A stretch of DNA of 64,000 bases from Candidatus Collierbacteria bacterium (lineage in GTDB: Bacteria > Patescibacteriota > Microgenomatia > UBA1400 > JACPES01), in NCBI GenBank assembly GCA_016183365.1, contig JACPES010000003.1, positions 345,154 to 409,153 of the forward strand, given 5' to 3'. Made by a program: the position numbers and the translations under genes. Each line of letters opens with the position of its first letter. Position 1 is the stretch's first letter. Below the pieces are notes generated by a model that made no database searches, had not been told where the DNA came from, and saw nothing but the letters and a program-made list of their open reading frames with translations. Below are positions 1,292 to 52,669 of this stretch, piece by piece.

Positions 1292-1320
1292 AAATCATGA
1301 AAGCATTAAAACAAAATGCT

Positions 1321-1350
1321 CTAATGCTCCAATGTTCTAATGCTCTAATG
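1321..1350. repeat. 8-nt tandem repeat (ctaatgct / ccaatgtt) x~3.7 ending in the preferred ATG start 1348
   Basis: ctaatgct ccaatgtt ctaatgct ctaatg. Confidence 0.75.
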
Positions 1351-6882: not shown

Positions 6883-6898
6883 GTCTATAATATTCTTT

Positions 6899-7831: not shown

Positions 7832-7832
7832 T

Positions 7833-7856: not shown

Positions 7857-7868
7857 AAAACAATAATA

Positions 7869-8609: not shown

Positions 8610-8614
8610 TAGTT

Positions 8615-8950
8615 ATGAATTTTATTACTTTTCCGTTACAGCTTATCGCCATAGCATTTTTAATTTTTGCTTTTTCTAGGGTATGGTTAAGAACCAGAGA
8701 GGGTTCAATCGGATGGGGGATGTTCTTGTTTTGGATATTGGTTTGGATGTTGGTTTTAATAGCGGTCATCAAACCGGAGCTGATGACTCAATTGGCTAAA
8801 AGATTGGGGATAGGCCGGGGAGTTGACGTTGCCCTATATATTTCTATCGTCCTGTTGTTTTACCTGAATTTCAGAAGCAACGTTATGATTGAGAATTTGC
8901 GCCATGAGATCACCAGATTAACCCGAATTATCGCATTAGACCAGAAGTGA
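8615..8950 (+). CDS. DUF2304-like small two-TM membrane protein (GT2 partner)
   Basis: 111 aa; two hydrophobic helices then LAKRLGIGRGVDVALYISIVLLFYLNF...ENLRHEITRLTRIIAL, matching recalled DUF2304 pattern; immediately downstream of GtrB-like GT2. Confidence 0.5.
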   Translation: MNFITFPLQLIAIAFLIFAFSRVWLRTREGSIGWGMFLFWILVWMLVLIAVIKPELMTQLAKRLGIGRGVDVALYISIVLLFYLNFRSNVMIENLRHEITRLTRIIALDQK

Positions 8951-10026
8951 AAATTGTACTGTTCACCGAATTTTTTCCCCGCAACGATAAGTATTTCACC
9001 GGAGGAGTGGAAGTTAGGGTAAGGCGTTTATATGAATATTTAAAAAAAACAAAACACGATGTGGCTGTCGTCAGCCGCTCCGAAGGCTATTCATTTAATT
9101 CGCCGTTGACAGCGATACAAAGAATATTTTTCTTTTTTCGTTGGATCGCGAAAATTATTTTTACCCGGCTTCCGACGGTTGATGTGGTAGAAGGAACAAA
9201 TTTCACCACTTATATATTGGCTTTTATTTATGCCAAAAAAATCAAAGCTAAAGCGATAGCTTGGTATCCTGACGTTTTTTTGGGGAAGGCGATAGAAAGA
9301 TTAGGATTTATAAATGGTTTATTGACTGAAATTTCCGAGAGAATTTCCGTCAGGCTTCCCTGGGATAAAATTATTGCCTTATCAGAAGAAACCAAAAAAA
9401 AATTAATTGAAGCAGGGGTTGACAGGAGAAAGATCGAAGTAATCTATGGCGGCGTTGATTATAACAGTTATAACGCTTATAGCCGTTATTCTAAATTTAA
9501 AACACCAACCATCATTTGTATCTCAAGGTTGGTAAAGTATAAAAGAATACAGGATTTAATTTTGGCGGTTTATTTGTTAAAAGATACGATTCCAAATACT
9601 AGGTTGATAGTGGTGGGGGAAGGGCCTGAAAAAGACAAGTTAAAAGTTAAAAGTGAAAAGTTAAAAGTTAAGGCTGAATTTTTCGGCCGAGTTTCAGAAG
9701 AAAAGAAATGGGAATTATTATCCAAGTCTCATATCCACGTTCTGCCTTCGGCTATAGAAGGGTTTGGTTTGGTGACTATTGAGGCGTTGTCGGTCGGGAC
9801 GCCGGTAGTTAATGCCGATATACCTATCAATAAGGAAGTTTTAAACGGAAGTAAAGGAGGCTTGCTTTATGAACTTGGTGATTACGTCGATTTATCAGAG
9901 AAACTTGAAGAATTGCTAACTGATCAGAAGCTTTATGACCGAAAAGCGGAAGAAGGGCTTGAACTGGTTAAAAAATATGATTGGGACAAAGTAAATAAAA
10001 AATATGAACATTTGCTTTTTAATTGA
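8947..10026 (+). CDS. Glycosyltransferase family 4
   Basis: LIVVGEGPE...EGFGLVTIEALSVGTPVV; contains heptamer tract (agttaaa x5) in GEGP-to-FFGRV linker. Confidence 0.75.
   Translation: MKIVLFTEFFPRNDKYFTGGVEVRVRRLYEYLKKTKHDVAVVSRSEGYSFNSPLTAIQRIFFFFRWIAKIIFTRLPTVDVVEGTNFTTYILAFIYAKKIKAKAIAWYPDVFLGKAIERLGFINGLLTEISERISVRLPWDKIIALSEETKKKLIEAGVDRRKIEVIYGGVDYNSYNAYSRYSKFKTPTIICISRLVKYKRIQDLILAVYLLKDTIPNTRLIVVGEGPEKDKLKVKSEKLKVKAEFFGRVSEEKKWELLSKSHIHVLPSAIEGFGLVTIEALSVGTPVVNADIPINKEVLNGSKGGLLYELGDYVDLSEKLEELLTDQKLYDRKAEEGLELVKKYDWDKVNKKYEHLLFN
9638..9672. repeat. Heptanucleotide tandem repeat agttaaa x5 (one unit agtgaaa, last agttaag) in GT4 CDS
   Basis: Direct reading; encodes KLKVKSEKLKVK. 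Confidence 0.85.
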
Positions 10027-10966
10027 CGTTTCACCGGATAAATTTAAGGGAGGCGGGCAGGCGCATCTCGTCGCTCTAGAGCGCGAGATGCGAATTAAGA
10101 ATTCAGAATTCATAATTCAGAATTTTAGTGGTTCAAGTCCAAATGTTTTCCTGCGTTTAGCGTGGATGCTTTGCGTAATCCCCCAAGTAATTTTTCACCA
10201 TTTCTTCAAACAAAAATTTGATTTAATTCACGCTCATTCAATTCCGGTTATGGTGTCGGGGAAAATACTGTCGTTGATATTAGGAATCCCGGTAGTAGTG
10301 ACTGTGCATGGTTATAACGAAAGTCGTTGGATGGAGAAATTAGTTTTAACTAAAATAAAATATGATGCTCAAATCACGGTAGCGAGGAATTTTTTGTCAG
10401 TTCCCAATGCCAATAAAAATGTGATTTATATTCCAAATGGGGTTGACGTATCGCGTTTTCAATGCGATAAATTCAGAATTCAGAATTCAGAATTCAGAAT
10501 TGTTTTGTTCGTCGGTCGTAAAAATGATCAGGCTAAAGGGTTTGTAATTTTGGAGAAAGCTTTAGAATTAGTTAAAAAGGAGATTCCTCAAATAAAACTA
10601 CTGGTTGCCGGCGGTGATTTATCACAGGAGGACGTATTACAGATGTATCAAAAAACCGATCTTTTTGTTTTGCCTTCCCTATCAGAGGGTTTCCCTTTAA
10701 CTTTGCTCGAATCCTGGGCGGCGAAACTCCCGGTAGTGGCTACCAGAGTCGGAGAATTGCCGTATCTAATTAGGGACGGAATCAATGGTTATCTGGTTGA
10801 GCCGGGATCGACACAAAAATTGGCTTTGGCCATCGTCAGGGCTTTAAAAAACCGGAATCTTGCCAAACTGGGAGAAAATGGGTACAATGTGGCGAAGCAT
10901 TACAAATGGAGCAAAGTCGCCGGATCAACTTTGAAAGTTTATGAATCAGTTGTATTGTCAGAGTAA
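10004..10966 (+). CDS. Glycosyltransferase family 4
   Basis: IVLFVGRKND...EGFPLTLLESWAAKLPVVATRVGELP; two gaattca heptamer tracts in-frame. Confidence 0.7.
   Translation: MNICFLIDVSPDKFKGGGQAHLVALEREMRIKNSEFIIQNFSGSSPNVFLRLAWMLCVIPQVIFHHFFKQKFDLIHAHSIPVMVSGKILSLILGIPVVVTVHGYNESRWMEKLVLTKIKYDAQITVARNFLSVPNANKNVIYIPNGVDVSRFQCDKFRIQNSEFRIVLFVGRKNDQAKGFVILEKALELVKKEIPQIKLLVAGGDLSQEDVLQMYQKTDLFVLPSLSEGFPLTLLESWAAKLPVVATRVGELPYLIRDGINGYLVEPGSTQKLALAIVRALKNRNLAKLGENGYNVAKHYKWSKVAGSTLKVYESVVLSE
10092..10126. repeat. Heptanucleotide tandem repeat gaattca x~5 (imperfect) in GT4 CDS
   Basis: gaattaa gaattca gaattca taattca gaatttt. Confidence 0.8.
10469..10503. repeat. Heptanucleotide tandem repeat gaattca x3 perfect plus flanking imperfect units, same GT4 CDS
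   Basis: aaattca gaattca gaattca gaattca gaattgt. Confidence 0.85.
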
Positions 10967-11055
10967 TTGTTATATTGTTAAATTGCTGAATTGTTCATAG
11001 ATGAAAAAACAATTTAACAATCTAACAATCTAGCAATATATCAATGTCAATTCCC
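10965..11055. promoter_or_regulatory. Array of 8-bp units with core ATTG(T/C)T: 4 direct units (10965-10996) and ~6 units in inverted orientation (11008-11055) flanking an A-rich centre; candidate operator/iteron array upstream of and running into the Trm112-like gene
   Basis: aattgtta tattgtta aattgctg aattgttc | agatgaaaaa | aacaattt aacaatct aacaatct agcaatat atcaatgt caattccc. Confidence 0.5.
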
Positions 11056-11211
11056 AAAGATCTTTTAGAAATTTTGGCTTGCCCAGATGATAAATTTCCG
11101 GTCAAAGAAGTCAACTTGAAGGGAAAATATTGGCTCAAATGTTCCAAGTGCAAGCGGGTCTTCGAAGTTCGCGACGGTATCCCGATTATGTTGCCTAAAG
11201 ACGAGAAGTGA
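11044..11211 (+). CDS. Trm112/YcaR-like (UPF0434) small zinc-ribbon protein, 55 aa
   Basis: MSIPKDLLEILACPDDKFPV...CSKCKRVFEVRDGIPIMLPKDEK: LACP...C.C...DGIP.ML signature; not in ORF track (short) but clean ATG..TGA. Confidence 0.55.
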   Translation: MSIPKDLLEILACPDDKFPVKEVNLKGKYWLKCSKCKRVFEVRDGIPIMLPKDEK

Positions 11212-12509
11212 ATAAGCCGTTAGTTTTAGGAATAATTGTTTTAGCCGCAGTTTTACTTTCAATCAATCTCAATAAACCATTCATCGGCCAGCACGATTGG
11301 AATGGAGTGGTTTACGGCCAGCAGGCAAAAAATTTCTTCAGGTTTGGGTATCTCCCGTTAAAATTCGGAGCGACCATGGCAACGGCTGATATCCCGTCGG
11401 ATGACCGAAAATATTTAACCCACTACACTCCGGTGTTGCCGGTATTAATCAGTTTTTCCTACAGATTATTCGGAGTGTCTGAATGGAGTACAAGATTGAT
11501 CCCGATAGTAGCGTCATTAGTGTCGGTACTATTGGTGATGATGTTGGGAAAAGAATTGATTTCATCCGGAGCAGGAACTTTAGCCGGTATTTTAATGATA
11601 ATGACGCCGATGTTTATTTATTACGGGAAAAATCCGGTACATGAAGTGGTATTGTTGCCGTTTGCGCTTTTGGGATTTTATTCATATTTGCGTTGGCGCC
11701 GGAGTCGGGAAAAGAAATGGTGGAAAATTTTACTATTGGCGTCAACTGCGGCAATGCTGATCGGTTGGTCCGGATATTATGCAATGGGTTTGATATTTAT
11801 TCATGGCATTTTGTTTCAGCCAAAAGAGAAGATGAAATTTCTCCAATTACCGTTGATTGCCGTAGCCCTGTTAGCCCTTTTTTTGTTTCACGCCTCAATT
11901 TTAAGTTCGCAAGCTGCCGGTGAGCTTCGAAACATTTTTTTCGCCAGATTAGGAGGAGCATCAATTGGTTTGATTGATTTTTTGATTAAAGAACTGCGTT
12001 ATTCCATAAATTTGTTTACGGCATCTCTATTGTTGCTATCCATGATCTGGATATTTTCTGTCATTCCTGGCCCTTCGGCGGTGAGCTCAGGATGGTCGAA
12101 CAGCTTGACCAGGAATCTATACAAAGGGAACACGATTCTTTTATTTTTCCTTGGAATATTTGGCCTAGCCCATATTATGATTTTCCGTCAGGCGGCTTGG
12201 TATCACGAATATTTGCTGTTCCCTCTTTTACCTTTTATCGCAATTGCTTCAGCGGAAGTTATTCAGCGGGGGATTAATCAATTGCGTTCCGGAATGGCGC
12301 AGCTAATCGGGGTAACCGTAATTATATTATTTGTCGCCGGCGAGCGGTTACCCTACGCGAAAGCCTTGCTTAAGAGCGAGTATGTCAGAGATGTTTATGA
12401 AGAGGCGGTTGAGTACGGGAAAGTAGTTAAAGTTAATCCGGATGTGATTGTTCCTATAGAACGGGATGTTTACTTTATATTTTATGCCGATACAGTGAGA
12501 AAGAAATGA
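11208..12509 (+). CDS. GT-C family (ArnT/PMT/GT39-like) polytopic membrane glycosyltransferase
   Basis: ~11 TM helices, acidic first-loop, YGKNPVHEVVLLPFALLGFYSYLRW; GTG start overlapping upstream stop. Confidence 0.5.
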   Translation: MNKPLVLGIIVLAAVLLSINLNKPFIGQHDWNGVVYGQQAKNFFRFGYLPLKFGATMATADIPSDDRKYLTHYTPVLPVLISFSYRLFGVSEWSTRLIPIVASLVSVLLVMMLGKELISSGAGTLAGILMIMTPMFIYYGKNPVHEVVLLPFALLGFYSYLRWRRSREKKWWKILLLASTAAMLIGWSGYYAMGLIFIHGILFQPKEKMKFLQLPLIAVALLALFLFHASILSSQAAGELRNIFFARLGGASIGLIDFLIKELRYSINLFTASLLLLSMIWIFSVIPGPSAVSSGWSNSLTRNLYKGNTILLFFLGIFGLAHIMIFRQAAWYHEYLLFPLLPFIAIASAEVIQRGINQLRSGMAQLIGVTVIILFVAGERLPYAKALLKSEYVRDVYEEAVEYGKVVKVNPDVIVPIERDVYFIFYADTVRKK

Positions 12510-13612
12510 ATTTACCGATCTTTGCCATCATGGTTTTGGCAGTATTTTTCCGCCTTTGGAAGGTTAGCGAGTTAATGGTGTTTTCCGGAGAAACTAATAA
12601 TCTGTTTTATTATTTAACTTCTTATTTAGCAGGTGAGAAACCGTGGCTTTTGGGACTGGAGGCGGCGCAATATGTCCATCATTTGTTCCATTTGCCGTGG
12701 TATTTATGGATGATGATTCCGGTTTATTTTGCCGGAGGCGGAAATCCGCTGGTTTTTGCGGTTTTTCAGGCGAGTATCGGGGCGCTTGGGTCTTATTTAA
12801 TGTGGAGAATCGGCTTGATGATCGGATCAAGGAGAGTTGGCTTGATCGCGGCTTTCGGATATGCGGCGTCGTTTCATTTTTCAACAGTTGAGAGATTTGT
12901 GTCGCCGGTCAGCCTGGTGCCCTTCGGAGCGATAGGGGTTATTTATTTAGGACTAAGGGCGAAGCGGAAACAGAAACGGTTAAGTTATTTGCTGCTGGGA
13001 TTGTGGGCGGGAATTTCGGTATCGTTTCACTATGCTTTCCTTTTGGGAGCGGTTTTTGTTTTGGCGTGGGTATTTTGGAGGCAAAGAAAGTTTTTTTGGC
13101 CAAGTCTTATCGGAGTAACTTTGGCGTTTTTGCCGCTTTTGATATTTGATTTTAGGAACGGATTTTTTAATCTGACGGGACTGTGGTACGTCGGAAAATC
13201 ATTATTTGACAGCACTCGGCCATATGGTTCGTCCCATTTTATTTATCAATTGTATCCATTGTTGACATTGGCCGCGGCTGGATTGGTTTCATATTTTCCA
13301 AGAAAAGTAATATATGTTCTGGCGGTTGTTTTTTTTGCAACCCAGTTAGTTATGTTGAGAAATTACGAAATTCACCCAAATTTTGGCGATAGGCGAAAAA
13401 CTGTCGATCAAATACTTAACAGTTGGGATAGTAAAGCGAGTGTTTATTTCAAAAACGAATCTTCTTTTGATTATGTTTATTTGTTGCGATGGGAAGCAAA
13501 ACAGCGTGGTTTAGACCCGCGAAATATTGTGATTTACGAGCCGTGGCAACCGGAAAACAATGCTAGGATTGTGGTCGAAGGAAATGGAACGTTGGTATAC
13601 TCAAGGGAATGA
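12506..13612 (+). CDS. Polytopic membrane protein (GT-C-like, unknown specificity)
   Basis: 368 aa, ~9 hydrophobic segments, ATGA overlap with upstream GT-C gene. Confidence 0.35.
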   Translation: MNLPIFAIMVLAVFFRLWKVSELMVFSGETNNLFYYLTSYLAGEKPWLLGLEAAQYVHHLFHLPWYLWMMIPVYFAGGGNPLVFAVFQASIGALGSYLMWRIGLMIGSRRVGLIAAFGYAASFHFSTVERFVSPVSLVPFGAIGVIYLGLRAKRKQKRLSYLLLGLWAGISVSFHYAFLLGAVFVLAWVFWRQRKFFWPSLIGVTLAFLPLLIFDFRNGFFNLTGLWYVGKSLFDSTRPYGSSHFIYQLYPLLTLAAAGLVSYFPRKVIYVLAVVFFATQLVMLRNYEIHPNFGDRRKTVDQILNSWDSKASVYFKNESSFDYVYLLRWEAKQRGLDPRNIVIYEPWQPENNARIVVEGNGTLVYSRE

Positions 13613-14733
13613 AAAGAGTTGTGGTTTGTTGCTATGGGACTAGGCCGGAGTTTATCAAAATGGCGCCGGTGGTTTTGGAATTGAATAAGAGGAAAACAGT
13701 TACTCCTGTTTTAATTTGTTCCGGACAGCATGAAGAATTACTGTCAGGACTGGATAAAATATTTGATTTGACTGTCCAAATTAACCTTAATGTTAGAAAG
13801 AAAATTGGTTCTACAACGAACCTTTCACTCTTAACTGAGGGAGTCCATGCCGGCTTCGCGGAGGTTTTGGGGAGAATTAAACCGGACGCAGTTTTAGTCC
13901 AAGGTGATGCGGCGTCTACTTTCCTGGCGGCGTTGGCAGCTTTTCATCAACATATTCCTATCTTTTACATGGAAGCAGGCTTAAGAACTCATGATCTAGA
14001 TCAACCATTTCCCGAAGAAGCGTATCGCCAGATGACAACCAGGATTTCCAAGATATTATTTGCTCCAACAAAAATAAACAAACATAATTTGACAAATGAA
14101 GGAATTGCTTCCAATAGAATTTATGTCGTGGGGAATTCTATTGTTGATTCTGTCGATTACATTAAAAGCCAATTCCGGAAGATAGGAATTAAAAAATTAC
14201 GCCGGCAATATTATCCATGGCTACCTAATGACAGCAAGGAGAAACTGATTGTCGTGACAATCCATAGGAGGGAAAATCAAGGAGTGGTTTTAGATGGAAT
14301 TCTTAGAGCTTTGATAAAAATCAGACGTGATAACCCGAGCAATTTATTTGTTTTTTCTGTTCACCCTAATCCGGAGGTGAGGTTGTCGGTATACGATAAG
14401 TTGAAAAATGTTTCCGGTTTTACTCTGATTAATCCGCCGCTTTATCAAAAATTTTTGGTGCTACTTAGTTGTGCCCAGGCTGTGATAACAGATTCAGGCG
14501 GTTTACAAGAAGAAGCGCCGTCATTTGAAATACCGACTATTGTAGTCAGGAAAAAGACCGAAAGAGTGGAAGGTGTCCGATCAGGTTGGTCAATCTTAGC
14601 TGGGGTATCAGAACCAGGAATTATTCGGGCATTTAATTCATTAAACAAATGGCGAAAACCCAAAGGAGGAAATCCATACGGGGATGGAAAAGCGTCGATG
14701 AGAATCGCTAAAATGATCTATGAAAAAATTTAG
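13609..14733 (+). CDS. wecB: UDP-N-acetylglucosamine 2-epimerase family (WecB/NeuC/LegG-like)
   Basis: VVCCYGTRPEFIKMAPVV...HMEAGLRT...VGNSIVDSV...LQEEAPSF; whether hydrolysing (NeuC-type) or not cannot be told. Confidence 0.8.
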   Translation: MKRVVVCCYGTRPEFIKMAPVVLELNKRKTVTPVLICSGQHEELLSGLDKIFDLTVQINLNVRKKIGSTTNLSLLTEGVHAGFAEVLGRIKPDAVLVQGDAASTFLAALAAFHQHIPIFYMEAGLRTHDLDQPFPEEAYRQMTTRISKILFAPTKINKHNLTNEGIASNRIYVVGNSIVDSVDYIKSQFRKIGIKKLRRQYYPWLPNDSKEKLIVVTIHRRENQGVVLDGILRALIKIRRDNPSNLFVFSVHPNPEVRLSVYDKLKNVSGFTLINPPLYQKFLVLLSCAQAVITDSGGLQEEAPSFEIPTIVVRKKTERVEGVRSGWSILAGVSEPGIIRAFNSLNKWRKPKGGNPYGDGKASMRIAKMIYEKI

Positions 14734-15367
14734 TCGAGAATATTTTTTAAGGCATTATCAGTCCGCCGAAGATAAAAATCCGCCCGAGAAGATAAAGACG
14801 TATTTGTCTTTGATACGAGGTCACGTTTCGGAAAGTCATAAAAGCAAGAGGAGGCTTTTGGATATTGGCTGTGGGTACGGAAGATTTTTGAAAGCTGCCG
14901 AGGCGGATTTTGAAACTTATGGAATTGACCCGAGCGCGTTTGCGATTACCGAAGCTAAAAAATATGCCGAAATTACTAAGTTTGAGGTAGCCGCAATTTC
15001 ATCATATAAACCGAAGAAGTTTTTCGATGTAATTACTGCGTTTGATATTTTAGAACACACAAATAATTTATCCGATTCTTTACAAAAAATAAAAAGATGG
15101 CTGAAACCCGGAGGATTGTTAATGGTTGTAGTTCCGGTTTATGACGGAATTTTTGGAACAATAGGAGGGTGGTTAGATAAAGACGTGACCCATGTCCAAA
15201 AACTTAGCCGTTGGATTTGGTTAAAATTGTTTGAGAGCAATTTTAAGGTTTTAGATAAACAAGGGATAATTCGTTATTCATTAACCGAAAAGATTTATTT
15301 GCACTTCATGTTTCCCTGGCTGTTCCGATGGGGTCAGGCAATATTGGTAAAGATGAAAAAAATATGA
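14720..15367 (+). CDS. Class I SAM-dependent methyltransferase
   Basis: LLDIGCGYGRFL motif I; KPGGLLMVV post-II motif. Confidence 0.65.
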   Translation: MKKFSREYFLRHYQSAEDKNPPEKIKTYLSLIRGHVSESHKSKRRLLDIGCGYGRFLKAAEADFETYGIDPSAFAITEAKKYAEITKFEVAAISSYKPKKFFDVITAFDILEHTNNLSDSLQKIKRWLKPGGLLMVVVPVYDGIFGTIGGWLDKDVTHVQKLSRWIWLKLFESNFKVLDKQGIIRYSLTEKIYLHFMFPWLFRWGQAILVKMKKI

Positions 15368-16092
15368 TTCATATAGTTTTGCCCGCCTTTAACGAAGCCG
15401 AATCTTTAAAAGTATTATTACCGGAACTGATAAGGACTTTGAAGGCTGAACGCTTACAGTATAAAATCTATGTTATAGATGACGGAAGTCTGGACGGAAC
15501 TTCTAAAATTGTTAAAGATTTTTCCCGCCGTTTCCCACAGATTAAATTGATAGCTCATAAAATCAACAAGGGTTTGGCCGAAACTATTAATACCGGTTTT
15601 AAAGAAGCTTTAAGAAAAAGCAAAAATGGGGATATATTGATTACCATGGATGCTGATAATACCCATTTACCAGGTTTAATAGTCAGGATGGCGAGGTTGA
15701 TAAATGAGGGAAATGACATTGTGATATCTTCACGATTCGTTTCAGGTTCTCGGGTGAGAGGCGTTCCGATCAGCCGCCGTTTATTGAGCTTGGCGGCCGG
15801 AATGATTTTCAAAATTCTTTTTCCCATATCCGGAGTTAAAGATTATACCTGCGGATTCCGGGCTTACCGGGTTGATCTTATTAAAAAAGGGATGGGAATT
15901 TATAAAGATAAATTTATCAGTGAAAAAGGATTTTCCTGTATGGTGGATATATTGTTAAAATTAAGGCGCTTGGATCCGATTTGCGCCGAAGTTCCGATGA
16001 TTTTAAGATATGACCTTAAAAAAGGTAAAAGCAAAATGGATGTTGGCAAGACAATAACGGAGACATTAAAACTTATACTCAAGCGATTATGA
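15364..16092 (+). CDS. Glycosyltransferase family 2 (Dpm1-like)
   Basis: MIHIVLPAFNEAESL...YVIDDGSLDGT...TMDADNTH; ORF-track start 15328 overlaps upstream gene, ATG at 15364 preferred. Confidence 0.7.
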   Translation: MIHIVLPAFNEAESLKVLLPELIRTLKAERLQYKIYVIDDGSLDGTSKIVKDFSRRFPQIKLIAHKINKGLAETINTGFKEALRKSKNGDILITMDADNTHLPGLIVRMARLINEGNDIVISSRFVSGSRVRGVPISRRLLSLAAGMIFKILFPISGVKDYTCGFRAYRVDLIKKGMGIYKDKFISEKGFSCMVDILLKLRRLDPICAEVPMILRYDLKKGKSKMDVGKTITETLKLILKRL

Positions 16093-17471: not shown

Positions 17472-19375
17472 TAAAAATTGAAAGGCTTTCTATCCCGGTG
17501 GACTTTAATTTATCTTTTCTGAAAATCCGTTGGTCTGATCATATTTTGATGTACCCTGATTTTTCTCTCGAAAAATCAGTTGGTACACCAAAACCCTGCA
17601 TCGACGCTCTTGCGACGCATGGACGCAGCCCATGGGAGCAAGTAAGTTTAATGCGGGGTTGTCCTATCGGTGAAGGAGTAGTCTATGGCGGCGACTGGGC
17701 GAAAGCGGAACGACTAGCGAGGCAGATGGCGGAAATGAAGTTTGGAGCCGACCGCGACGGGTTACAGGTATGTGAGCAGGTGTTTATTGAACCAGCCCCA
17801 GCAGTACGCTTGCCACTCCCGTGGTCTACGTCCACGCGTCGTGGTGTCGCGACTGCGGGGTTCGGATGTGACCGCGATTTTTTCCTTCAGGAAAAAATCG
17901 GTCCCATCCGAAAAAGAAAATCTAATTTGAAATTGAAAGTCGGAAGAAATGTTTTTGATGATATTAAAGTTATAGAGTTTATTCGCCGTGAACTGAAATT
18001 CCCGAATGAGATTAGGATTGATGCTAATCAAGGGTATTCTCTCAAGCAACTGCAATATATTGTTCCGACGTTAAAAGAAGCAGGAATTGAATATGTGGAA
18101 GAGCCGGTCAAGATTAAAGATCTGCCAGCCGCCGTCAAATTACTTCATCAAAACGGACTCAAAATTATTCTTGACGAAACCCTCTTGTTTAAAAAGTCAT
18201 CACGAGACTCCGCTAAGCGGGGTCGTGGCGATCTAATTGTAAAGACAGATTGCCACGTCACTACGTTCCTCGCAATGACAGAACTTAAGATCGATGTCAT
18301 AAATATCAAACTCTCCCGTATCGGCGATATAAATAAAGCGATTCAGTTAATCGCATTGGCAAAAAAACACAATATAAAAATAGTGATTGGTTGCAGCGAA
18401 GAACTTGAAAGAGGGATGAAGGCTATTTACGCGTTGGGACACGAAGCCAGAAAATCCGGAGTGTTGTTGGAGGTTGAAGGTTTTGGGCCTTTAAGGCTTA
18501 AACAAAAATATACTTCAGTGCCGCGGTGGTTCAACCGGATGGAAAATTTATCGATAATCATCGGTCACAAAATCCGGCAGCTGATATTTGAAATATATTG
18601 GCTGGTTTTAAAAGTTGGAGTTTTAATAATGAAAAAATCTAAATTAGTTTCCCCCCTCTCGCTTCATTTGGTTAAATGGACCGGCAAATCCAGACAAAAA
18701 ATTCATCCTAAACATTTGATTTTTCAAAAATATCCGCCTGAATTTTTAAAATGCTTAAATCCAAATGATTTTGTCTTGGATGTTGGCTGTGGCAACGGTC
18801 AGAATAGTCTGCTGGCAGCCGGAAAGGCAAAAAGGGTGGTTGGTTTCGACATTGATAAAACACAATTGAAAATTGCCAAAGCTGAAGCGGTCAGGCGGGG
18901 ATTAAATAATGTTGAATTCGATTATGCTTCGGCTGAAGATAAATTCCCTTATAAATCACGTTCATTCGATAAGATTATTTTTTTGGGAGTCTTGGAGCAT
19001 TTGACTAACAGGGAAAATATTTTAGAGGAAATTCGCAGGGTGATGAATTCCGGCGGACAATTATTGTTGGGGGTTCCGAATGAGGGAACAAGTTGGAAAA
19101 AACTGCAAATGAATGTCGGGGTCCAGCATTTTACCGATCCGGATCACAAACTGGAGTTTACCCTCCGGACAATCAGCGATTTATTGGTTAAAACGGGATT
19201 TAAGCCGGTTTCAATTCAGCCGACGGCCTTTGATACTCCATGGGCGGGCTTGATTGACGTTGTTGGTGGGATTTCTCTGAACATCTATCAGAAACTTTTA
19301 TTTTGGAAGTGGGCTAAGGCTAAGCAAAATCCGGAAGAATCTATTAGTTTTTTTATTGTCGCAAATAAAATCTAA
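17468..19375 (+). CDS. Enolase-superfamily (MR/MLE-type barrel: KxK, DAN, EEP, DET, K motifs) protein running in-frame into a class I SAM methyltransferase domain; possibly two genes (second start ~18628) or a fusion; N-terminal 140 codons atypical/GC-rich
   Basis: LKLKVG...IRIDANQGYS...VEEPVKI...ILDETL...INIKLSRIGDI barrel motifs; C-terminal VLDVGCGNGQ...FDKIIFLGVLEHL MTase motifs; no stop between. Confidence 0.45.
   Translation: MIKIERLSIPVDFNLSFLKIRWSDHILMYPDFSLEKSVGTPKPCIDALATHGRSPWEQVSLMRGCPIGEGVVYGGDWAKAERLARQMAEMKFGADRDGLQVCEQVFIEPAPAVRLPLPWSTSTRRGVATAGFGCDRDFFLQEKIGPIRKRKSNLKLKVGRNVFDDIKVIEFIRRELKFPNEIRIDANQGYSLKQLQYIVPTLKEAGIEYVEEPVKIKDLPAAVKLLHQNGLKIILDETLLFKKSSRDSAKRGRGDLIVKTDCHVTTFLAMTELKIDVINIKLSRIGDINKAIQLIALAKKHNIKIVIGCSEELERGMKAIYALGHEARKSGVLLEVEGFGPLRLKQKYTSVPRWFNRMENLSIIIGHKIRQLIFEIYWLVLKVGVLIMKKSKLVSPLSLHLVKWTGKSRQKIHPKHLIFQKYPPEFLKCLNPNDFVLDVGCGNGQNSLLAAGKAKRVVGFDIDKTQLKIAKAEAVRRGLNNVEFDYASAEDKFPYKSRSFDKIIFLGVLEHLTNRENILEEIRRVMNSGGQLLLGVPNEGTSWKKLQMNVGVQHFTDPDHKLEFTLRTISDLLVKTGFKPVSIQPTAFDTPWAGLIDVVGGISLNIYQKLLFWKWAKAKQNPEESISFFIVANKI
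17548..17589. repeat. Long hairpin gatgtaccctgatttttc-tctc-gaaaaatcag(tt)ggtacacc at 5' side of GC-rich segment
   Basis: ~16 bp stem with 2-nt bulge. Confidence 0.7.
18196..18279. repeat. Degenerate copy of MITE-like element type 1 inside enolase-superfamily barrel domain
   Basis: gtcatcacgag...agattgccacgtc...cctcgcaatgac; encodes SRDSAKRGRGDLIVKTDCHVTTFLAMT. Confidence 0.6.
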
Positions 19376-19388
19376 AATATAAAAACGT

Positions 19389-19436
19389 CAATTATTTTCA
19401 GGCAAAGCCTGATCCTGCTCTGCGGGAAAATAATTG
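19389..19436. repeat. Intergenic stem-loop: 11-nt inverted repeat caattattttc/gaaaataattg enclosing caggcaaagcctg hairpin
   Basis: Direct reading; downstream of 17468..19375 ORF, upstream of 19447 gene. Confidence 0.6.
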
Positions 19437-19446
19437 AAGTAAATTT

Positions 19447-21342
19447 ATGAAATCAGTAAATCCGACCGTATCAGTATTATTTCCTATAGGGAAAGATAAA
19501 CGTTTCTTAGAGGAAGCATTGGAGAGTATCAGAAATCAGTCTTTTAAGGATTATGAATTATTATCCCAAGAAGATGACGGAAGAGGAATTACTCAAGTCT
19601 TAATTGATTTAGCCAAAAAGGCAAAAGGTGAATTCTTAGTCCGGATGGATGTTGACGATATTTGTTTGCCAAACAGATTTAAGGTTCAAGTGGATTATCT
19701 CCGGGCCAATCCGGATGTTCAATTAGCCGGATCATGGGCAATCTTAATTGACGAAAAAGGAAATCAGATAGGTTTGCAGAAAATGCCAATTTATTGGGAA
19801 GAGATAAAAAGGGAAGCATTCTTCAGAAACCCTTTAATTCATCCGTCATGGATGACGCGCAGGAATTGGTTTGAAAAGATTGGCGGATACAATTCTGTTT
19901 TTGCAACTGCTCAGGATTGGGAGTTGATCTTAAGAAGAGTTTGGCGGGAAAGAATTGAAAATATTCCGGAGCCTTTACTCAAATTAAGAATACATTCAGG
20001 GTCGGTTTCGTTTTCCAAAAATAGATTACAAGTTTACTATGGCCTGAAAGCCAGATTATCGGCGATTCTTAGGGGTGATGTCCGATGGTATAAGGGGATT
20101 TATTTAATGCCATCGTTATTAGCTTTGATGATTCCTACAAAATTAAAATTGTTAGCAAGGCTCAATTTAAATAGATTCCTGGTCAAGCTGTTCGACCATC
20201 CTGAGCTCACCGCCGAAGGGCCAGGAATGACAATAAAGCCGGTCTTGGGAATAGTAATGCCGATCGGGCAAAACAAAGAACAATTATTGAAATCAGGACA
20301 ATGGGGTCTTTGGCAATCTGAAATTGAAGAATACCGGAAATATTTTGGCGGAGTGGAAATATTTGAATTTAAGCATAGGAATTGGTTCAGGTTTCCGGAA
20401 GCAATTCTGCTGCCATTGGTTCAGTCGGACAGATTCAAGCGATGTTCGGTTTTTAAAGCCGTCCACCTGTCGGCAGTAGTTCCTTGTTTGATGGTAAAAG
20501 CGTTATATAGGATTCCGTACGTTTTGAGTTTTGGTTATCGATATGACGAATTTGCCAAGATTGAGAAGAAATGGGTACAGTGGATTTTTATAAAACTATT
20601 AGAACCCTTAGCAATTAGGTATGCAGATTTAGTTTTGGTTCCGACAGAGGGGCTTAGAGCATATGTTAATGATATCGGTGCGAAAAATATTGAAGTGATT
20701 CCAAATGGAGTTGACGTTAATCTGTTCAAACAGGCCTCAAAAGGTCTCACCTTGCGTCCGCAAGGTGAGACCTTATTAAATATTCTTTTCGTCGGGAGAT
20801 TGGAAAGACAAAAAAACTTAGAGAGTTTGATCAAGGCAGTTTATAAACTATTAAAAGGTCCGACCTTGCCTCGGCAAGGTCGGACCTTAATAAATAAGCT
20901 GGTGTTTGTTGGAGCCGGAAGTTTGAGGGGTGAGTTGACTAAGTTGGCAAATACACTCGGGATTAATTTAGAGATTATCGGACCGGTTCCCAATGAAAAA
21001 TTACCGGGAATTTATCGCCAGGCTGATATTTTTGTTTTGCCGTCTTTAGCCGAAGGCCACCCTAAAGCCTTATTGGAGGCGATGAGCTGCGGTTTGGCGT
21101 GTATAGCAAGTGATATTACCGGCGTGAATGAGATAATTGTTGACGGCAAAAACGGGTTGTTGGTTCAGGCTACAGTTAATGGTTTGGTCAAGGGGCTGAA
21201 GCGACTAGTCGGCGATTCTAAACTCCGGAAACTTTTGGGAACCAACGCCAGAAAGACGGTGCTAGATAGATTTGATAAGAGAAAGCTAATGGAAAAAGAG
21301 TGTAAGTTACTGACGCGATCCCAATATCCGAATTCATCCTAA
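19447..21342 (+). CDS. Bifunctional glycosyltransferase: N-terminal GT2 domain + C-terminal GT4 domain
   Basis: SVLFPIGKDKRFLEEALESIRNQSF...RMDVDDICLPNRF (GT2) then ILFVGRLERQKN...EGHPKALLEAMSCGLACIASDITG (GT4); two in-frame 34-nt palindromes. Confidence 0.65.
   Translation: MKSVNPTVSVLFPIGKDKRFLEEALESIRNQSFKDYELLSQEDDGRGITQVLIDLAKKAKGEFLVRMDVDDICLPNRFKVQVDYLRANPDVQLAGSWAILIDEKGNQIGLQKMPIYWEEIKREAFFRNPLIHPSWMTRRNWFEKIGGYNSVFATAQDWELILRRVWRERIENIPEPLLKLRIHSGSVSFSKNRLQVYYGLKARLSAILRGDVRWYKGIYLMPSLLALMIPTKLKLLARLNLNRFLVKLFDHPELTAEGPGMTIKPVLGIVMPIGQNKEQLLKSGQWGLWQSEIEEYRKYFGGVEIFEFKHRNWFRFPEAILLPLVQSDRFKRCSVFKAVHLSAVVPCLMVKALYRIPYVLSFGYRYDEFAKIEKKWVQWIFIKLLEPLAIRYADLVLVPTEGLRAYVNDIGAKNIEVIPNGVDVNLFKQASKGLTLRPQGETLLNILFVGRLERQKNLESLIKAVYKLLKGPTLPRQGRTLINKLVFVGAGSLRGELTKLANTLGINLEIIGPVPNEKLPGIYRQADIFVLPSLAEGHPKALLEAMSCGLACIASDITGVNEIIVDGKNGLLVQATVNGLVKGLKRLVGDSKLRKLLGTNARKTVLDRFDKRKLMEKECKLLTRSQYPNSS
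20741..20774. repeat. 34-nt perfect palindrome aaggtctcaccttgcg-tc-cgcaaggtgagacctt inside GT2-GT4 CDS
   Basis: Encodes KGLTLRPQGETL in-frame. Confidence 0.9.
20855..20888. repeat. 34-nt perfect palindrome aaggtccgaccttgcc-tc-ggcaaggtcggacctt inside same CDS, 114 nt downstream
   Basis: Encodes KGPTLPRQGRTL in-frame; differs from 20741 copy only by paired compensatory changes. Confidence 0.9.
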
Positions 21343-21397
21343 TGATCCGAATATACGGATTCGTAGATTCGGATAATTAGTAGATTAGGATCGGATT
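21326..21397. repeat. Nested inverted repeats (atccgaat / attcggat; tcctaat / attagga) spanning stop of 19447 gene and intergenic region
   Basis: Direct reading. Confidence 0.55.
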
Positions 21398-21401
21398 TGA
21401 C

Positions 21402-22532
21402 ATGAAAGTATTATTTGTTTTGGAAAACACTATCAAAAGTCTGGAAGGCGGAACAGAAGTCAGCAGTTTTCATCTGGCCGGGTTGCTCCGCGGACAAAAA
21501 ATTGATGTTGAAGAATGGGCCCCCTATTCAAAAAGAATGCCAATATACTTTTATACCGGTATATTTTTTCAAATAGTTATATTTTTGTTACTTCTGTGGA
21601 CATGCGTGAAAAATAGACCACAAATTTTACACATTCAGGGAAAATATCTTTTACCACAGGTAGTTTTAGTTGGTAAGCTACTAAGAATCCCTACTGTGGC
21701 AACGATTAGAGATTATATTGTCGTTTGCCCGATTGGGCTATGCCTATTTGATTTTCACACCAATCATGGTTTTTTGTTTTTCTTTTTTCATGAGATTCCA
21801 AAGTTTCTATCGATTTATCACCGGAATGATAATCTAATCATTCGAATCATTAGATACATATTTCTCACGAGAGGTTGGTTGGTAACGCAGTGGTTGAGAT
21901 TTTGGTTGAAGCGGGCTGATGCGGTAGTTTCGGTTTCCGAAGCAGTCAAAAAAATCCTGTCTTACAATGGAATTTCATCTAAAGTTATTCACAATGCCTT
22001 CGATCCGGAAGTTTTGAAAAATCTTTCGGCAGAGCGATTATCCATCATCCATCATCCATCATCCATCTTGTTCGCCGGCAAACCGTCTTATGGAAAGGGT
22101 TATGATCTGTTTCAATCACTTTCTCGTAATAAACTATTTCGAGATTTTAGGTTTGTGACAATCGGCGGGAGTAATAAGTTGCCTTATTTGGAAACTCTGC
22201 AAAAAATTAGGGAAGCGGTGGCCGTAGTCGTCCCCAGCCGTTGGCCGGAACCGTTTGGACGGGTGGCGCTGGAGGCTTTAATGATGGGAACTCCGGTCGT
22301 TGCATCAAAATGCGGGGGCTTGCCGGAGATTGTTGAAAATGGTAAAACCGGAATTATAACTGAGCTTACAATTGGTGATATGGCTGACGCCTTGAGATTG
22401 ATAATCAAGCAAAATAATAAATTTAGAGAAGAAATTATGACCAGAAAAAAACTATTGATAAAGAAATTTGAATCGATTCCTCTCAGATCACATATCAATC
22501 TTTACTCGATCCTTCTTGCTAAAATAGGCTAA
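21402..22532 (+). CDS. Glycosyltransferase family 4
   Basis: ILFAGKPSYGKG...EPFGRVALEALMMGTPVVASKCGGLPEIV; tcatcca x4 tract in-frame. Confidence 0.7.
   Translation: MKVLFVLENTIKSLEGGTEVSSFHLAGLLRGQKIDVEEWAPYSKRMPIYFYTGIFFQIVIFLLLLWTCVKNRPQILHIQGKYLLPQVVLVGKLLRIPTVATIRDYIVVCPIGLCLFDFHTNHGFLFFFFHEIPKFLSIYHRNDNLIIRIIRYIFLTRGWLVTQWLRFWLKRADAVVSVSEAVKKILSYNGISSKVIHNAFDPEVLKNLSAERLSIIHHPSSILFAGKPSYGKGYDLFQSLSRNKLFRDFRFVTIGGSNKLPYLETLQKIREAVAVVVPSRWPEPFGRVALEALMMGTPVVASKCGGLPEIVENGKTGIITELTIGDMADALRLIIKQNNKFREEIMTRKKLLIKKFESIPLRSHINLYSILLAKIG
22038..22065. repeat. Heptanucleotide tandem repeat tcatcca x4 in GT4 CDS
   Basis: ttatcca tcatcca tcatcca tcatcca; encodes IIHHPSSI immediately before ILFAGK. 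Confidence 0.85.
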
Positions 22533-22534
22533 GG

Positions 22535-23653
22535 ATGAAAAAAGTTTTCGGTGCGATTCTAATACTTTGGGTAGTTTCTCTTTTGACCAGCGCTTATATC
22601 GCCCCAAGATTTATTCCAGACACCCTGTTTATTGGCAGCAGAAACTCGTTTGACGAAAGACTACCGCAGTGGCTGTACGACAATCGTATGCCTCGTTGGA
22701 TTTGGATGTGGGCTAACCTTGACGGCAACCATTATCTATCGATTGCCAGAAACGGATATTATGAATTTGAGAATGGTTTTTTCCCTTTATATCCATTGGC
22801 CATAAGAGTCGTGGCCAATTTGTCGGGACTACCTTTTCTATTATCCGGACTATTAGTGACATATACTTCTTTTATTCTGTTTCTTAAACTACTGCTTCGC
22901 CTTTTAAGGCTTGATTTTACCGATCAAGCCAGTAATCAGGTTATACGGTGGATAATCGGATTCCCGGTGGCGTTTTATTTGATTGCGATTTATAACGATG
23001 CTTTATTTTTATTTTTAACGGTCGGATGTTTTTATGCTGTCAGAAAAAGCAAATGGTGGCCGGGCGGGATTTTGGGCGGACTGGCGGCATTAACCAGGTT
23101 TCCCGGGATAGCCATTTTTCCGGCCTTGTTGATTGAATGGTGGAGCGGCAAGCGCCGGATAAGGGATTTGATCCCCGTTTTTTTTATTCCCTTATCAACA
23201 TTGTCATATTTTCTATATCTGCATATTTGGGAAAGAGACTGGAATCTATTTGTGACTTCGATGAGCGTTTGGAGACAGGACCGGTTTGTATTGCCCATCC
23301 AGACGGCTTACCGGTATTTTAAAATTTTTGCCTCGGTTTCACCTAACAGCTTAATGTATTTTTTGGCGTTGGCAGAGTTCTCGGCGGTGGTTTTTGCTAT
23401 AGTGGTTTTAATCAAAGGATTTAAACTTATCAGACGGTCTTATTGGGTTTACGCTGTATCTTATCTTTTAATTCCGATGTCAGGCGGGACTTTTCAGGGG
23501 ATGCCGAGGTATATTATTCACGCTTTTCCGGTGATATTGATTTTTTCTTTGTTAACAGTTAAAAGCCGGTGGCGGTATTTAGTCATGGGGGGATTTTTTG
23601 TTTTGCAACTGATATTTATGGCTTTCTTTTCCCAAGGATATTTTATTTCTTAA
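22535..23653 (+). CDS. PIG-V-like mannosyltransferase family polytopic membrane protein (GT-C), paralog of 5707..6882
   Basis: ANLDGNHYLSIARNGY first-loop motif; same TM architecture and C-terminal GMPRYI motif as 5707 gene. Confidence 0.5.
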   Translation: MKKVFGAILILWVVSLLTSAYIAPRFIPDTLFIGSRNSFDERLPQWLYDNRMPRWIWMWANLDGNHYLSIARNGYYEFENGFFPLYPLAIRVVANLSGLPFLLSGLLVTYTSFILFLKLLLRLLRLDFTDQASNQVIRWIIGFPVAFYLIAIYNDALFLFLTVGCFYAVRKSKWWPGGILGGLAALTRFPGIAIFPALLIEWWSGKRRIRDLIPVFFIPLSTLSYFLYLHIWERDWNLFVTSMSVWRQDRFVLPIQTAYRYFKIFASVSPNSLMYFLALAEFSAVVFAIVVLIKGFKLIRRSYWVYAVSYLLIPMSGGTFQGMPRYIIHAFPVILIFSLLTVKSRWRYLVMGGFFVLQLIFMAFFSQGYFIS

Positions 23654-23657
23654 GGCT

Positions 23658-24770
23658 ATGATTATTTTAAGCCCGCAACTTGGAATATCACCTACGGCTA
23701 CTACCGGCGGCGAGACCTATGATCGGGAATTGTTAAAACAGTTTGTCAAAATGGGGCAGGAGGTACGAATTTTATTGCCCAAAAACAAGTCAGTCCCAGA
23801 AGGAATAACGGGATGGAAAATTGACAGAACGCAGTTTAGCCGTTTTGTCCCGCCGTATACATTTAATTTGTTCTCAATTCCCTGGGCCATAAAACAGATT
23901 CAACGTTCAACGTTCAACGTTCAACGCTCATTAGTCCTTCGTATCCATTCCCCCGAGTATTTATTTCCAACTGGGTACTTGATTAAAAAGCTGTATCCAA
24001 AGATTCCTCAAGTAGTCCACTATCATTTAGATCAGACTGGAATGATATGGACGAAGATGAATCGAATATTGTTGAACATGGCAGACGCGGTGATTGCCGA
24101 TTCTGAATTCTTAAAAAAGCAGTTAGTGGAAAGAGTCGGAATCGATCGGGAGAAGATTTATGTGATTTATTGCGGAGTTGACACAGAATCAATAATTCCG
24201 CTTCAGCACTCAACGTTCAACGTTCAACGTTCAAAAACTATTCTATTTCTCGGTCGGTTTATCGAACGCAAACGTCCTGATTTGGCAATCGAAATTTTTG
24301 CCAAACTTCACGCTAAACATCCCGACACCAGATTAATTATGGTGGGGGAAGGGCCGATGGAAGATGAGCTAAGGTTACAGGTTACAGGTTACAAGATACA
24401 GGATGCAGTAGAGTTTCCGGGACCATTATTCGGGAAAGAAAAACTAAAAAGATATCACGAAGCGGATTTGTTTTTGTTTCCGTCGCAGAAAGAGGGATTC
24501 GTGTTGGTAGTTTTGGAGGCGATGGCGGCAGGATTACCCTTGCTTGTTCCTGATGCTTTAGGTTTTCCCGAGGCGGTTGAAAACGGAAAAAACGGTTACT
24601 TGGCCGATCCGGATAATATCGAAGACTGGGTTAAAAAATCGGAAAAAATTCTATTTTCTCCCGTTTTGCAAAACTCAATGAGAGAATATTCGAGATATCT
24701 TTCTGAAACCAAATTCAGTTGGAAAACGTGCGCCCAAAAAAATCTGAAGATTTATCAGTCTTTAGTATAA
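23658..24770 (+). CDS. Glycosyltransferase family 4
   Basis: ILFLGRFIERKRPD...LIMVGEGP...EGFVLVVLEAMAAGLPLLVPD; three heptamer tracts in-frame. Confidence 0.75.
   Translation: MIILSPQLGISPTATTGGETYDRELLKQFVKMGQEVRILLPKNKSVPEGITGWKIDRTQFSRFVPPYTFNLFSIPWAIKQIQRSTFNVQRSLVLRIHSPEYLFPTGYLIKKLYPKIPQVVHYHLDQTGMIWTKMNRILLNMADAVIADSEFLKKQLVERVGIDREKIYVIYCGVDTESIIPLQHSTFNVQRSKTILFLGRFIERKRPDLAIEIFAKLHAKHPDTRLIMVGEGPMEDELRLQVTGYKIQDAVEFPGPLFGKEKLKRYHEADLFLFPSQKEGFVLVVLEAMAAGLPLLVPDALGFPEAVENGKNGYLADPDNIEDWVKKSEKILFSPVLQNSMREYSRYLSETKFSWKTCAQKNLKIYQSLV
23899..23926. repeat. Heptanucleotide tandem repeat ttcaacg x4 perfect in GT4 CDS
   Basis: Encodes STFNVQRS. Confidence 0.9.
24209..24236. repeat. Heptanucleotide tandem repeat ttcaacg x~3.5, second tract of same unit in same CDS
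   Basis: ctcaacg ttcaacg ttcaacg ttcaaaa; encodes STFNVQRS again, just before ILFLGRF. Confidence 0.85.
24372..24399. repeat. Heptanucleotide tandem repeat aggttac x3 + degenerate aagatac, same CDS
   Basis: Encodes LQVTGYKIQ in GEGP-to-FPGP linker. Confidence 0.85.
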
Positions 24771-52664: not shown

Positions 52665-52669
52665 CAAGA

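Follow-up and report, generated by a model that had tools for sequence, protein, structure and literature searches.

Coding heptanucleotide arrays and small hairpins at recurrent positions of family 4 glycosyltransferase genes in Candidatus Collierbacteria

Heptamer arrays and hairpins in a glycan gene cluster

The window analysed here, a stretch of 64,000 nucleotides from a Candidatus Collierbacteria contig (JACPES010000003.1), carries short tandem arrays of seven-nucleotide units inside genes for family 4 glycosyltransferases (GT4). The homologues best matching the window belonged to Candidatus Collierbacteria, a lineage of the Candidate Phyla Radiation (CPR/Patescibacteria). Nearly every open reading frame (ORF) with a Pfam match in the window was a sugar-modifying or glycan-assembly gene, and the window therefore looks like a single long glycan cluster. 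The gene types comprised GT2, GT4, methyltransferases, epimerases, aminotransferases, PMT-like membrane proteins and a nonulosonic-acid-like block. The four array-bearing genes, referred to as g8947, g10004, g21402 and g23658 after their first nucleotide (Table 1), each combined a Glyco_transf_4 N-terminal domain with a Glycos_transf_1 C-terminal domain, as expected of GT4 enzymes. Homologues of g23658 in Candidatus Collierbacteria shared 57-82% identity with it, and its AlphaFold2 (AF2) model, with a predicted local distance difference test score (pLDDT) of 91, had two β/α domains, as in the two-Rossmann-domain GT-B fold.

The arrays were located with Tandem Repeats Finder (TRF) and with our own scans, both perfect and tolerant. 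The first-pass annotation, made from the letters alone, had listed seven arrays of 3-5 units in four GT4 genes, all reading through in frame. All seven were found at those places (21-35 nt each, mid-gene, up to three per gene), and every one was translated uninterrupted inside an intact ORF. In the array at 9637-9671, the sole deviant unit, AAGTGAA, falls exactly where a perfect unit would have created an in-frame TAA, which shows that selection keeps the frame open. Several units lie, in some rotation, within one or two substitutions of AAGTTCA, namely AAGTTAA, AAGCTCA, AAGCTAC, AGGTTAC, ACGTTCA (equivalent to TTCAACG) and GAATTCA. For the arrays at 9637-9671, 24372-24402, 23899-23930 and 10470-10501, this likeness suggests that the cassettes share an ancestor or that one unit sequence is preferred.

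At period 7 the window held five perfect arrays with three or more units, and at periods 5, 6 and 8-12 it held none; when the window was simulated 200 times with a third-order Markov model, the expectation for period 7 was 0.0. Arrays were present in four of the seven GT4-type genes of the window, as opposed to one of the 51 other ORFs (Fisher p = 4e-4). The comparison DNA from Collierbacteria, 206 kb of glycan-cluster loci only, held 28 period-7 arrays, compared with 2, 6 and 1 at periods 6, 8 and 10, respectively, and 23 of the 28 lay in GT4-type genes, which cover 25% of the bases. Our negative control consisted of 80 unrelated GT4 loci (1.38 Mb), obtained by a profile search of contigs with the orthologue alignment, whose matches were dominated by generic GT4 motifs and included no Collierbacteria. 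Perfect heptamer arrays occurred there at 5.8 per Mb and for the most part lay beyond ORFs or at their edges. The excess in Collierbacteria was thereby specific to period 7, relative to adjacent periods as well as to the composition-matched expectation, as is typical of slippage-type heptamer repeats. L100, a more distant relative, retained only the trace of a degenerate array (here and below, L numbers denote loci from relatives or controls, and P numbers denote homologous proteins). Among the controls, L043 (an Anaerolineae metagenome-assembled genome), L026, L029, L030 and L036 had perfect 7- and 8-nt arrays close to GT4 genes, most of them in intergenic DNA or at the margins of ORFs; in L043, seven such arrays, including CCAATCAC x6, were situated within 6 kb (3704-9079).

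Table 1. Repeat arrays, hairpin elements and their host genes in the window
Feature	Position	Strand	Location and remarks
GT4 gene g8947	8947..10026	+	Pfam Glycos_transf_1 (5.8e-35) and Glyco_transf_4; intact ORF; one array
GT4 gene g10004	10004..10966	+	Pfam; intact ORF; two GAATTCA arrays
GT2+GT4 fusion gene	19447..21342	+	Pfam and paralogue alignment; two hairpin elements at GT4 linker positions
GT4 gene g21402	21402..22532	+	Pfam; intact ORF; one array
GT4 gene g23658	23658..24770	+	Pfam; three arrays; AF2 model, pLDDT 91
AAGTTAA x5 array, 92% matches	9637..9671	+	g8947, pos3; encodes KLKVKSEKLKVK; TRF
GAATTCA x4.7 array, imperfect, 88%	10092..10124	+	g10004, N-terminal domain, site A; TRF
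GAATTCA x4.6 perfect array	10470..10501	+	g10004, pos2, immediately ahead of strand IVLFVGR
ATCCATC x4 perfect array	22040..22067	+	g21402, pos2, ahead of strand ILFAGK; encodes SIIHHPSS
TTCAACG x4.6 array	23899..23930	+	g23658, pos1
TTCAACG x3.6 perfect array	24210..24234	+	g23658, pos2
AGGTTAC x4.4 array (3 perfect plus 2 degenerate units)	24372..24402	+	g23658, pos3
TTGCTTT array, weaker eighth period-7 array	869..902	+	T-rich transmembrane stretch of ORF 17..1291; tolerant scan
Hairpin element variant AAGGTGTAACCTTGC..GCAAAGTTACACCTT	244..277		Inside ORF 17..1291
Hairpin element AAAGGCCTGGCCTTG..CAAGGCCAGGCCTTT	2572..2606		Inside ORF 1288..3123; -19.5 kcal/mol
Hairpin element AAGGTCTCACCTTGCG..CGCAAGGTGAGACCTT	20739..20776		GT2+GT4 fusion, pos2-equivalent; -17.3 kcal/mol, z -9.6
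Hairpin element AAGGTCCGACCTTGCC..GGCAAGGTCGGACCTT	20855..20888		Loop before second C-terminal-domain strand; -18.5 kcal/mol, z -9.6

The arrays are accompanied by a family of perfect, GC-rich hairpins of 33-39 nt with the consensus AAGG(N5)CCTTG, a loop of 0-7 nt, and CAAGG(N5)CCTT. The hairpins are free of stop codons, and many genes of the glycan cluster contain them in frame. We counted 36 two-arm copies in the 206 kb of Collierbacteria DNA, and the controls (1.38 Mb) had none. The copies form several core subfamilies, in which changes in the core are matched in both arms, and as DNA they fold with -17 to -19.5 kcal/mol (z-scores from -7.6 to -9.6). Among relatives, hairpins were present in L082, L085, L087, L088, L091, L092, L099, L101, L102 and L104, both between genes and in intact ORFs for GT4, methyltransferase, epimerase and DegT/aminotransferase proteins. 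In the single clear composite case, in L102, a 39-nt hairpin is located exactly inside an ACGATTN heptamer array, and its removal restores a perfect unit. The composite (~80 nt) is 95% identical at the same position (pos2, see below) of two GT4 genes. No target-site duplications flanked the hairpin copies inspected; as no 7-nt duplication stood beside them, we rejected the idea that the heptamer arrays are transposition footprints. Pfam and the gene tables yielded no transposase, RAYT-like or other candidate mobilising enzyme in the window or the loci, and neither hairpins nor arrays of the window matched an Rfam family. Our literature search found no description of the hairpin family and nothing on such repeats, including very small hairpins of this kind, in CPR bacteria.

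Positions, occupants and copying among orthologues

From the paralogue alignment and the AF2 model of g23658, we defined three positions, pos1 to pos3. In the g23658 model, pos1 corresponds to the end of helix 66-85 and the loop preceding strand 92-96 (pLDDT ~72). The pos2 segment (residues 185-189, pLDDT <50) is predicted to be a disordered interdomain linker before strand 193-198, which opens the C-terminal Rossmann domain; pos2 holds arrays of g10004, g21402 and g23658 and one hairpin element of the GT2+GT4 fusion. The third position, the interval between the GEGP and F.G motifs that carries arrays in g8947 and g23658, is modelled as helix 235-244 (pLDDT 97-98) and a short loop. Most of the arrays had been assigned at first pass to the entry of the C-terminal domain or to the GEGP-to-F.G interval, both taken for loops that tolerate insertions. 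The assignment was borne out by the paralogue alignment, in which three arrays lie directly before the (I/V)LF(V/L/A)G strand and two lie between GEGP and F.G. The loop interpretation suits pos1 and pos2 and fails at pos3, which is a confidently predicted helix.

Orthologues of g23658 served as the reference set, and DNA from 13 further orthologues was threaded onto the protein alignment (n = 14 with the window). Neither the orthologue counts nor the array counts in the 206 kb are phylogenetically independent. Loci recovered from several samples were identical, and so were some contigs compared at strain level for copy number (L082, L083, L084, L086 and L090; L085 and L089 within the cluster). 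At pos1, the orthologues carry arrays of TTCAACG (window and L099; degenerate in L105), ATCCATC (L088, L102), AAGAGTC (L103) or AAAATTC (L104), a 10-mer array (L085), a GC-rich hairpin (L087, L101), or nothing (L082). Occupants of pos2 are TTCAACG (window, L103), AAGGGCC (L085), an A-rich array (L105) and, in eight orthologues, a GC-rich perfect hairpin. A heptamer array of equal total length is always present at pos3, with AGGTTAC, AAGTTAA, AAGCTAC, AAGCTCA, TTCAAA-type or TCAACGT units. The arrays had been said to sit at homologous positions of the four genes, and a comparison with orthologous genes had been proposed; this comparison revealed the same hot spots across GT4 paralogues and orthologues, with differing occupants. 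Both sites of g10004 behave likewise in its orthologues, site A being hypervariable, with other 7-residue-periodic or hairpin-type peptides. GAATTCA occupies both g10004 sites in the window only, and concerted evolution between these two sites was rejected.

The length of the segments was far more stable than their content. The pos3 length was constant in 34 aligned orthologues, distant ones included. Both arrays of g10004 align gap-free to an array-free orthologue, and site A is unchanged in length relative to the L100 orthologue. In such alignments, arrays mostly replace sequence and do not insert into it, being length-neutral at four or more sites in comparison with array-free or distant orthologues.

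Out-of-frame alleles were found in none of the 14 DNA-level orthologues, and the neighbouring GT4 genes with arrays were also all in frame. The probability of 0 of 14 would be 0.007 at an OFF rate of 30% and 3e-7 at the rate of 65.6% known from neuO (see below). Strain-level variants, in six 90%-identity clusters, differed by 1-14 substitutions and had no internal indels, although this sample is limited and a single-unit change would be detectable in it only as a truncated protein. Several candidate OFF alleles were rejected: P0056, P0066 and P0075 came from a single, highly erroneous long-read assembly whose genes are all fragmented, the contig of P0030 starts inside a 10-mer array, short cluster members were contig-end fragments, and P0138 is a chimera through a shared 10-mer array, most likely an assembly artefact. 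This 10-nt array, GTACAAGAAA, is found in two GT4 genes of L085 (8274-8296 and 10238-10281). On the public contig of P0138, 771 nt long, it forms the junction between the 5′ portion of the first gene and the 3′ flank of the second; Logan contigs are also broken within this array.

At the DNA level, the arrays are conserved beyond what their genes would lead one to expect. Four-fold site identity between orthologues was 0.36-0.46, which is near saturation, while arrays with a shared unit at pos3 were 0.74-0.90 identical and shared hairpins ~0.89. Conservation of synonymous positions within the arrays implies constraint or maintenance acting on the DNA. Any variant spreading across the units of an array is translated in three frames, and that alone would slow unit change. 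The L102 orthologue has a perfect AAGCTAC x5 array; at the same site, the AGGTTAC array of L088 is degenerate, and one of its units is the intermediate AGGCTAC. This comparison shows homogenisation of units with no change in length.

Whole cassettes recur at non-orthologous sites. At pos3, g8947 in the window and the g23658 orthologue in L105 carry the same AAGTTAA cassette of 35 nt, down to the G that avoids the stop. A 33-nt GAATTCA cassette is shared by pos2 of g10004 and pos2 of the g29123 orthologues in L082 and L099, and a 24-nt ATCCATC cassette is shared by pos2 of g21402 and pos1 of the g23658 orthologue in L088. The SIIHHPSS peptide of g21402 is also found at pos2 of P0161, a g10004 orthologue. 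Identical copies of a 25-nt TTCAACG cassette likewise stand at non-orthologous sites, and a single hairpin sequence recurs unchanged in four L082 genes. In a comparison of the window with L105, its closest relative, the entire pos3 cassette has been swapped (17/39 identical positions, with flanks of 59/60 and 330/363), and a sharp identity breakpoint falls at pos1 (array 23899-23930). The recurrence of one unit at two sites of a gene had been taken at first pass as hard to explain by local slippage, and these identical cassettes of 24-35 nt in different genes, with the whole-cassette swap, confirm copying beyond it. On the same grounds, a purely local origin by slippage is insufficient. Slippage driven by DNA structure was rejected, as the GAATTCA and TTCAACG arrays form only weak hairpins and the other arrays none. 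The orthologues are also mosaic, with blocks of ~97% identity adjoining blocks of ~70% (P0011 vs P0121; the window vs L105 and L082; L085 vs L089 in the first 1.6 kb), which indicates frequent homologous recombination among Collierbacteria populations within the gene cluster.

The window holds further repeats. Two intergenic period-8 arrays separate g10004 from a Trm112-like ORF (10965-10995 and 11008-11045); they constitute an inverted pair, AATTGTTA x4 followed by AACAATCT x4.8, that is, a hairpin whose arms are tandem repeats, and a similar pair is present in L091 (1580-1670). Another 8-nt array, AATGCTCT x4.5 at 1315-1350, has an ATG in each unit and lies immediately 5′ of the ATG at 1348, at which the gene annotated as 1288..3123 probably starts in reality. 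A change in its unit number could alter the translation start or its spacing. L088 has a related array, ATGCTCTC x7, between genes (2426-2484). In ORF 17..1291, a 44-nt near-palindrome of AATTGGTCA 9-mers (812-855) adjoins the TTGCTTT array. The region 42884-56258, which is free of arrays, resembles a pathway for nonulosonic acid or acetamidino sugar biosynthesis. It encodes a DegT-GNAT fusion, an ATP-grasp protein, an epimerase, a metallophosphoesterase, a PIG-L deacetylase, a formyltransferase-like protein, a GATase plus HisF-like pair, a cytidylyltransferase and an oxidoreductase. Rfam and tRNA scans of the window found nothing. Nearly all genes are on the + strand, and the GC skew is positive throughout (1-64000), with the cumulative skew climbing steadily, in agreement with the unusual monotonic GC skew reported for Collierbacteria and relatives (PMC7143001).

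Probable origin and spread of the cassettes

We lean towards the interpretation that the arrays are lineage-specific coding repeat cassettes, made by slippage, copied between sites and filtered by selection, and not designed switches. A heptamer-duplicating process in this lineage, which the first-pass annotation had offered as its second choice, fits the data best, given 28 arrays in 206 kb compared with 5.8 perfect arrays per Mb in the controls. A DNA-level process with a 7-nt register would create arrays of ~25-35 nt and keep them homogeneous, most simply through replication slippage or misaligned repair. Whole cassettes would be copied from one permissive site to another, be it in the same gene, in a GT4 paralogue or, by recombination, in another strain, with short-patch template switching or gene conversion as the likeliest agent. 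Selection would retain the versions that keep the frame and the segment length and are stop-free in all three unit frames; because of this filter, arrays would survive only where the GT-B enzyme tolerates arbitrary sequence. Such places are probably the loop before the N-domain strand, the disordered interdomain linker, and the surface helix after GEGP, where the 21-nt super-period would naturally encode a heptad-like amphipathic peptide. The companion GC-rich hairpin cassettes of 33-39 nt occupy the same sites and can insert inside arrays.

Several considerations weigh against this interpretation. Slippage itself was never directly observed, and it is by inference that we name slippage and template switching as molecular agents, deny the arrays a switching function, and assign a donor and a direction to the cassette transfers. 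The enrichment in GT4 genes could reflect function and not tolerance; the Collierbacteria DNA sampled consists of glycan clusters only. That the units are conserved far above synonymous divergence could reflect selection acting directly on the nucleic acid, be it DNA or RNA. AAGTTAA-type peptides occur in several distant g23658 orthologues as well, so some of the sharing may be old polymorphism moved by homologous recombination. The dependence among orthologues through phylogeny, mentioned above, tells in the same direction.

The function first proposed for the arrays was slipped-strand phase variation, whereby a surface-glycan glycosyltransferase is reversibly turned off by the frame shift that comes with one 7-nt unit more or fewer. 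The unit length, which is not a multiple of 3, and the perfect or near-perfect tracts within ORFs of glycan genes fit this proposal; the non-triplet repeats inside ORFs (seven arrays in four ORFs) are what a contingency locus has. Moreover, units that homogenise at constant length must turn over, possibly by way of frameshifted intermediates, and there are coding heptamer precedents on glycan-modifying enzymes, namely neuO, with 3-53 repeats and 65.6% of 64 genomes OFF (PMC13001214), and the heptamer simple sequence repeats (SSRs) of H. influenzae (PMC2651432). However, each tract here has just 3-5 units, with up to three tracts per gene, placed mid-gene and not at the 5′ end. The heptamer switches known from coding sequences or promoters typically comprise 13-38 units (PMC13001214, PMC2651432), although tracts of 21-35 nt might still be hypermutable. 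Unit number did not vary among the strain-level variants compared, pos3 is fixed in length, and OFF alleles, instead of being common, are absent from the 14 orthologues and from neighbouring array-bearing GT4 genes, all truncated homologues being traceable to the noisy long-read assembly, contig ends or the chimera. These comparisons do not support the switch proposal, and we regard it as unlikely, short of switching at a low rate. Selection on the protein alone, with heptad-like peptides favoured structurally and the DNA periodicity as a by-product, would account for the amphipathic helix at pos3, where hydrophobic residues recur every 7 residues in array-bearing and distant homologues alike. 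It is barely tenable, being largely refuted by the perfection of the arrays at the DNA level, synonymous positions included: 4-fold sites in shared arrays are conserved while the gene-wide 4-fold identity is ~0.37, and identical cassettes occupy the linker modelled as disordered (pLDDT <50).

A different explanation would make the hairpins, and possibly the arrays, a dedicated system of tiny non-autonomous mobile elements moved by an enzyme, with the arrays as landing pads or footprints, resembling the repeats of Nostoc. The hairpin copy number (36 in 206 kb vs 0 in 1.38 Mb), the subfamilies with matched arm changes, the identical copies in four genes of L082, the presence or absence of hairpins among orthologous sites, and the 39-nt hairpin whose in silico excision from the ACGATTN array gives a perfect unit would all suit mobility, as would the similar size and shared sites of arrays and hairpins. 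We nevertheless hold it to be doubtful; no transposase, RAYT-like or other candidate gene was found in the window or loci, no target-site duplications were seen at the hairpins examined, and copying by host recombination or repair accounts for the same facts. The cassettes might instead be functional nucleic-acid signals, that is, marks for translation pausing or mRNA processing, or portable linker homology that recombines GT-B domains. Conservation far above synonymous sites even in the disordered linker, the strong hairpins (-17 to -19.5 kcal/mol), the interdomain-linker placement in several paralogues, the sharp breakpoint at pos1 between the window and L105, and one contig that fuses two genes via a shared 10-mer array speak for such roles. 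The hairpins, however, are also found in methyltransferase, epimerase and aminotransferase genes and in intergenic DNA, most arrays form no structure, other recombination breakpoints lie away from cassettes, the chimeric contig is only 771 nt long and most likely an assembly artefact, and no Rfam family matched, which makes this explanation quite improbable. In a bolder scenario, which we consider rather doubtful, tiny in-frame mobile cassettes (heptamers and hairpins of 33-39 nt) would be copied among permissive positions of GT-B and some other glycan enzymes, with arrays as landing pads, and linker homology would recombine acceptor- and donor-binding domains, diversifying the surface glycans of episymbiotic CPR bacteria.

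Significance and relation to known repeat systems

Intragenic repeats with non-triplet units are usually taken as switches. Those described here are long-persisting translated sequence, whose frame and length remain constant while the content is homogenised or swapped. They provide a concrete, testable example of a CPR lineage with a reduced genome that generates and tolerates hypervariable protein segments. In practical terms, such cassettes break contigs and yield chimeras in metagenome assemblies, and automated “phasome” predictions would wrongly call these genes phase-variable. Were the cassettes mobile or recombination-promoting, they would represent a new route to glycan diversification.

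The neuO gene of the E. coli K1 phage CUS-3 contains an AAGACTC repeat that is translated in all three frames, three units giving 7 residues (PMC13001214). Like it, the arrays repeat a 7-nt unit in tandem within sequence that encodes a surface-glycan enzyme. Unlike neuO, which has one variable 5′ tract (3-53 units, 65.6% OFF), they have 3-5 units in up to three mid-gene tracts of constant length, and no OFF allele was seen. According to the summaries of Mrazek et al. 2007 in PMC4692102 and PMC4679880, an excess of heptameric SSRs in many bacteria has been attributed to polymerase slippage on a footprint of ~7 nt; as described in these two sources, such repeats are mainly intergenic (Xanthomonas, Nostoc, Beggiatoaceae), and units in multiples of a triplet are expected inside genes. 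The period-7-specific excess of short tandem repeats is common to both cases, whereas the Collierbacteria arrays are overwhelmingly intragenic and lie in one enzyme family at conserved positions. The TAACTGA repeats of marine Beggiatoaceae, which in reverse orientation are sometimes read as 7-residue repeats at the periphery of proteins and for which possible mobility has been discussed (PMC4679880), are likewise a lineage-specific family of heptamer arrays. They differ in having a single unit and a location mostly upstream of start codons, in contrast to the internal conserved positions of one enzyme family seen here.

As for the hairpins, REP/REPIN sequences are extragenic hairpin doublets linked to a RAYT transposase gene (PMC3116915). 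The Collierbacteria elements are also short multi-copy hairpin doublets, with subfamilies defined by compensated arm changes, yet they are intragenic, and no RAYT gene was seen in the loci. A resemblance in behaviour connects them with another group. Rickettsia palindromic elements (RPE; reviewed in PMC10969869) are selfish DNA of ~100-150 bp that resides in frame in protein-coding genes. In both cases, palindromic repeats stand in frame in functional genes of reduced genomes, at surface-exposed or tolerant positions. The similarity is confined to behaviour, since the hairpins measure 33-39 nt, have neither the length nor the family homology of RPE, and keep company with tandem heptamers, which RPE do not.

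The closest described parallel comes from cyanobacteria. Elhai et al. (Genome Res 18:1484) reportedly described in 2008 that the short tandemly repeated repetitive (STRR) heptamers of Nostoc and other cyanobacteria coexist with small dispersed repeats (SDRs), hairpin-associated sequences that insert into the arrays and sometimes into genes. The phylum and the sequences are different, and in Collierbacteria both classes are in frame at defined protein positions. The Collierbacteria hairpins are multi-copy, shorter than 50 nt and identical at unrelated sites in one genome, and the L102 composite, a hairpin within a heptamer array, reproduces the STRR/SDR pairing.

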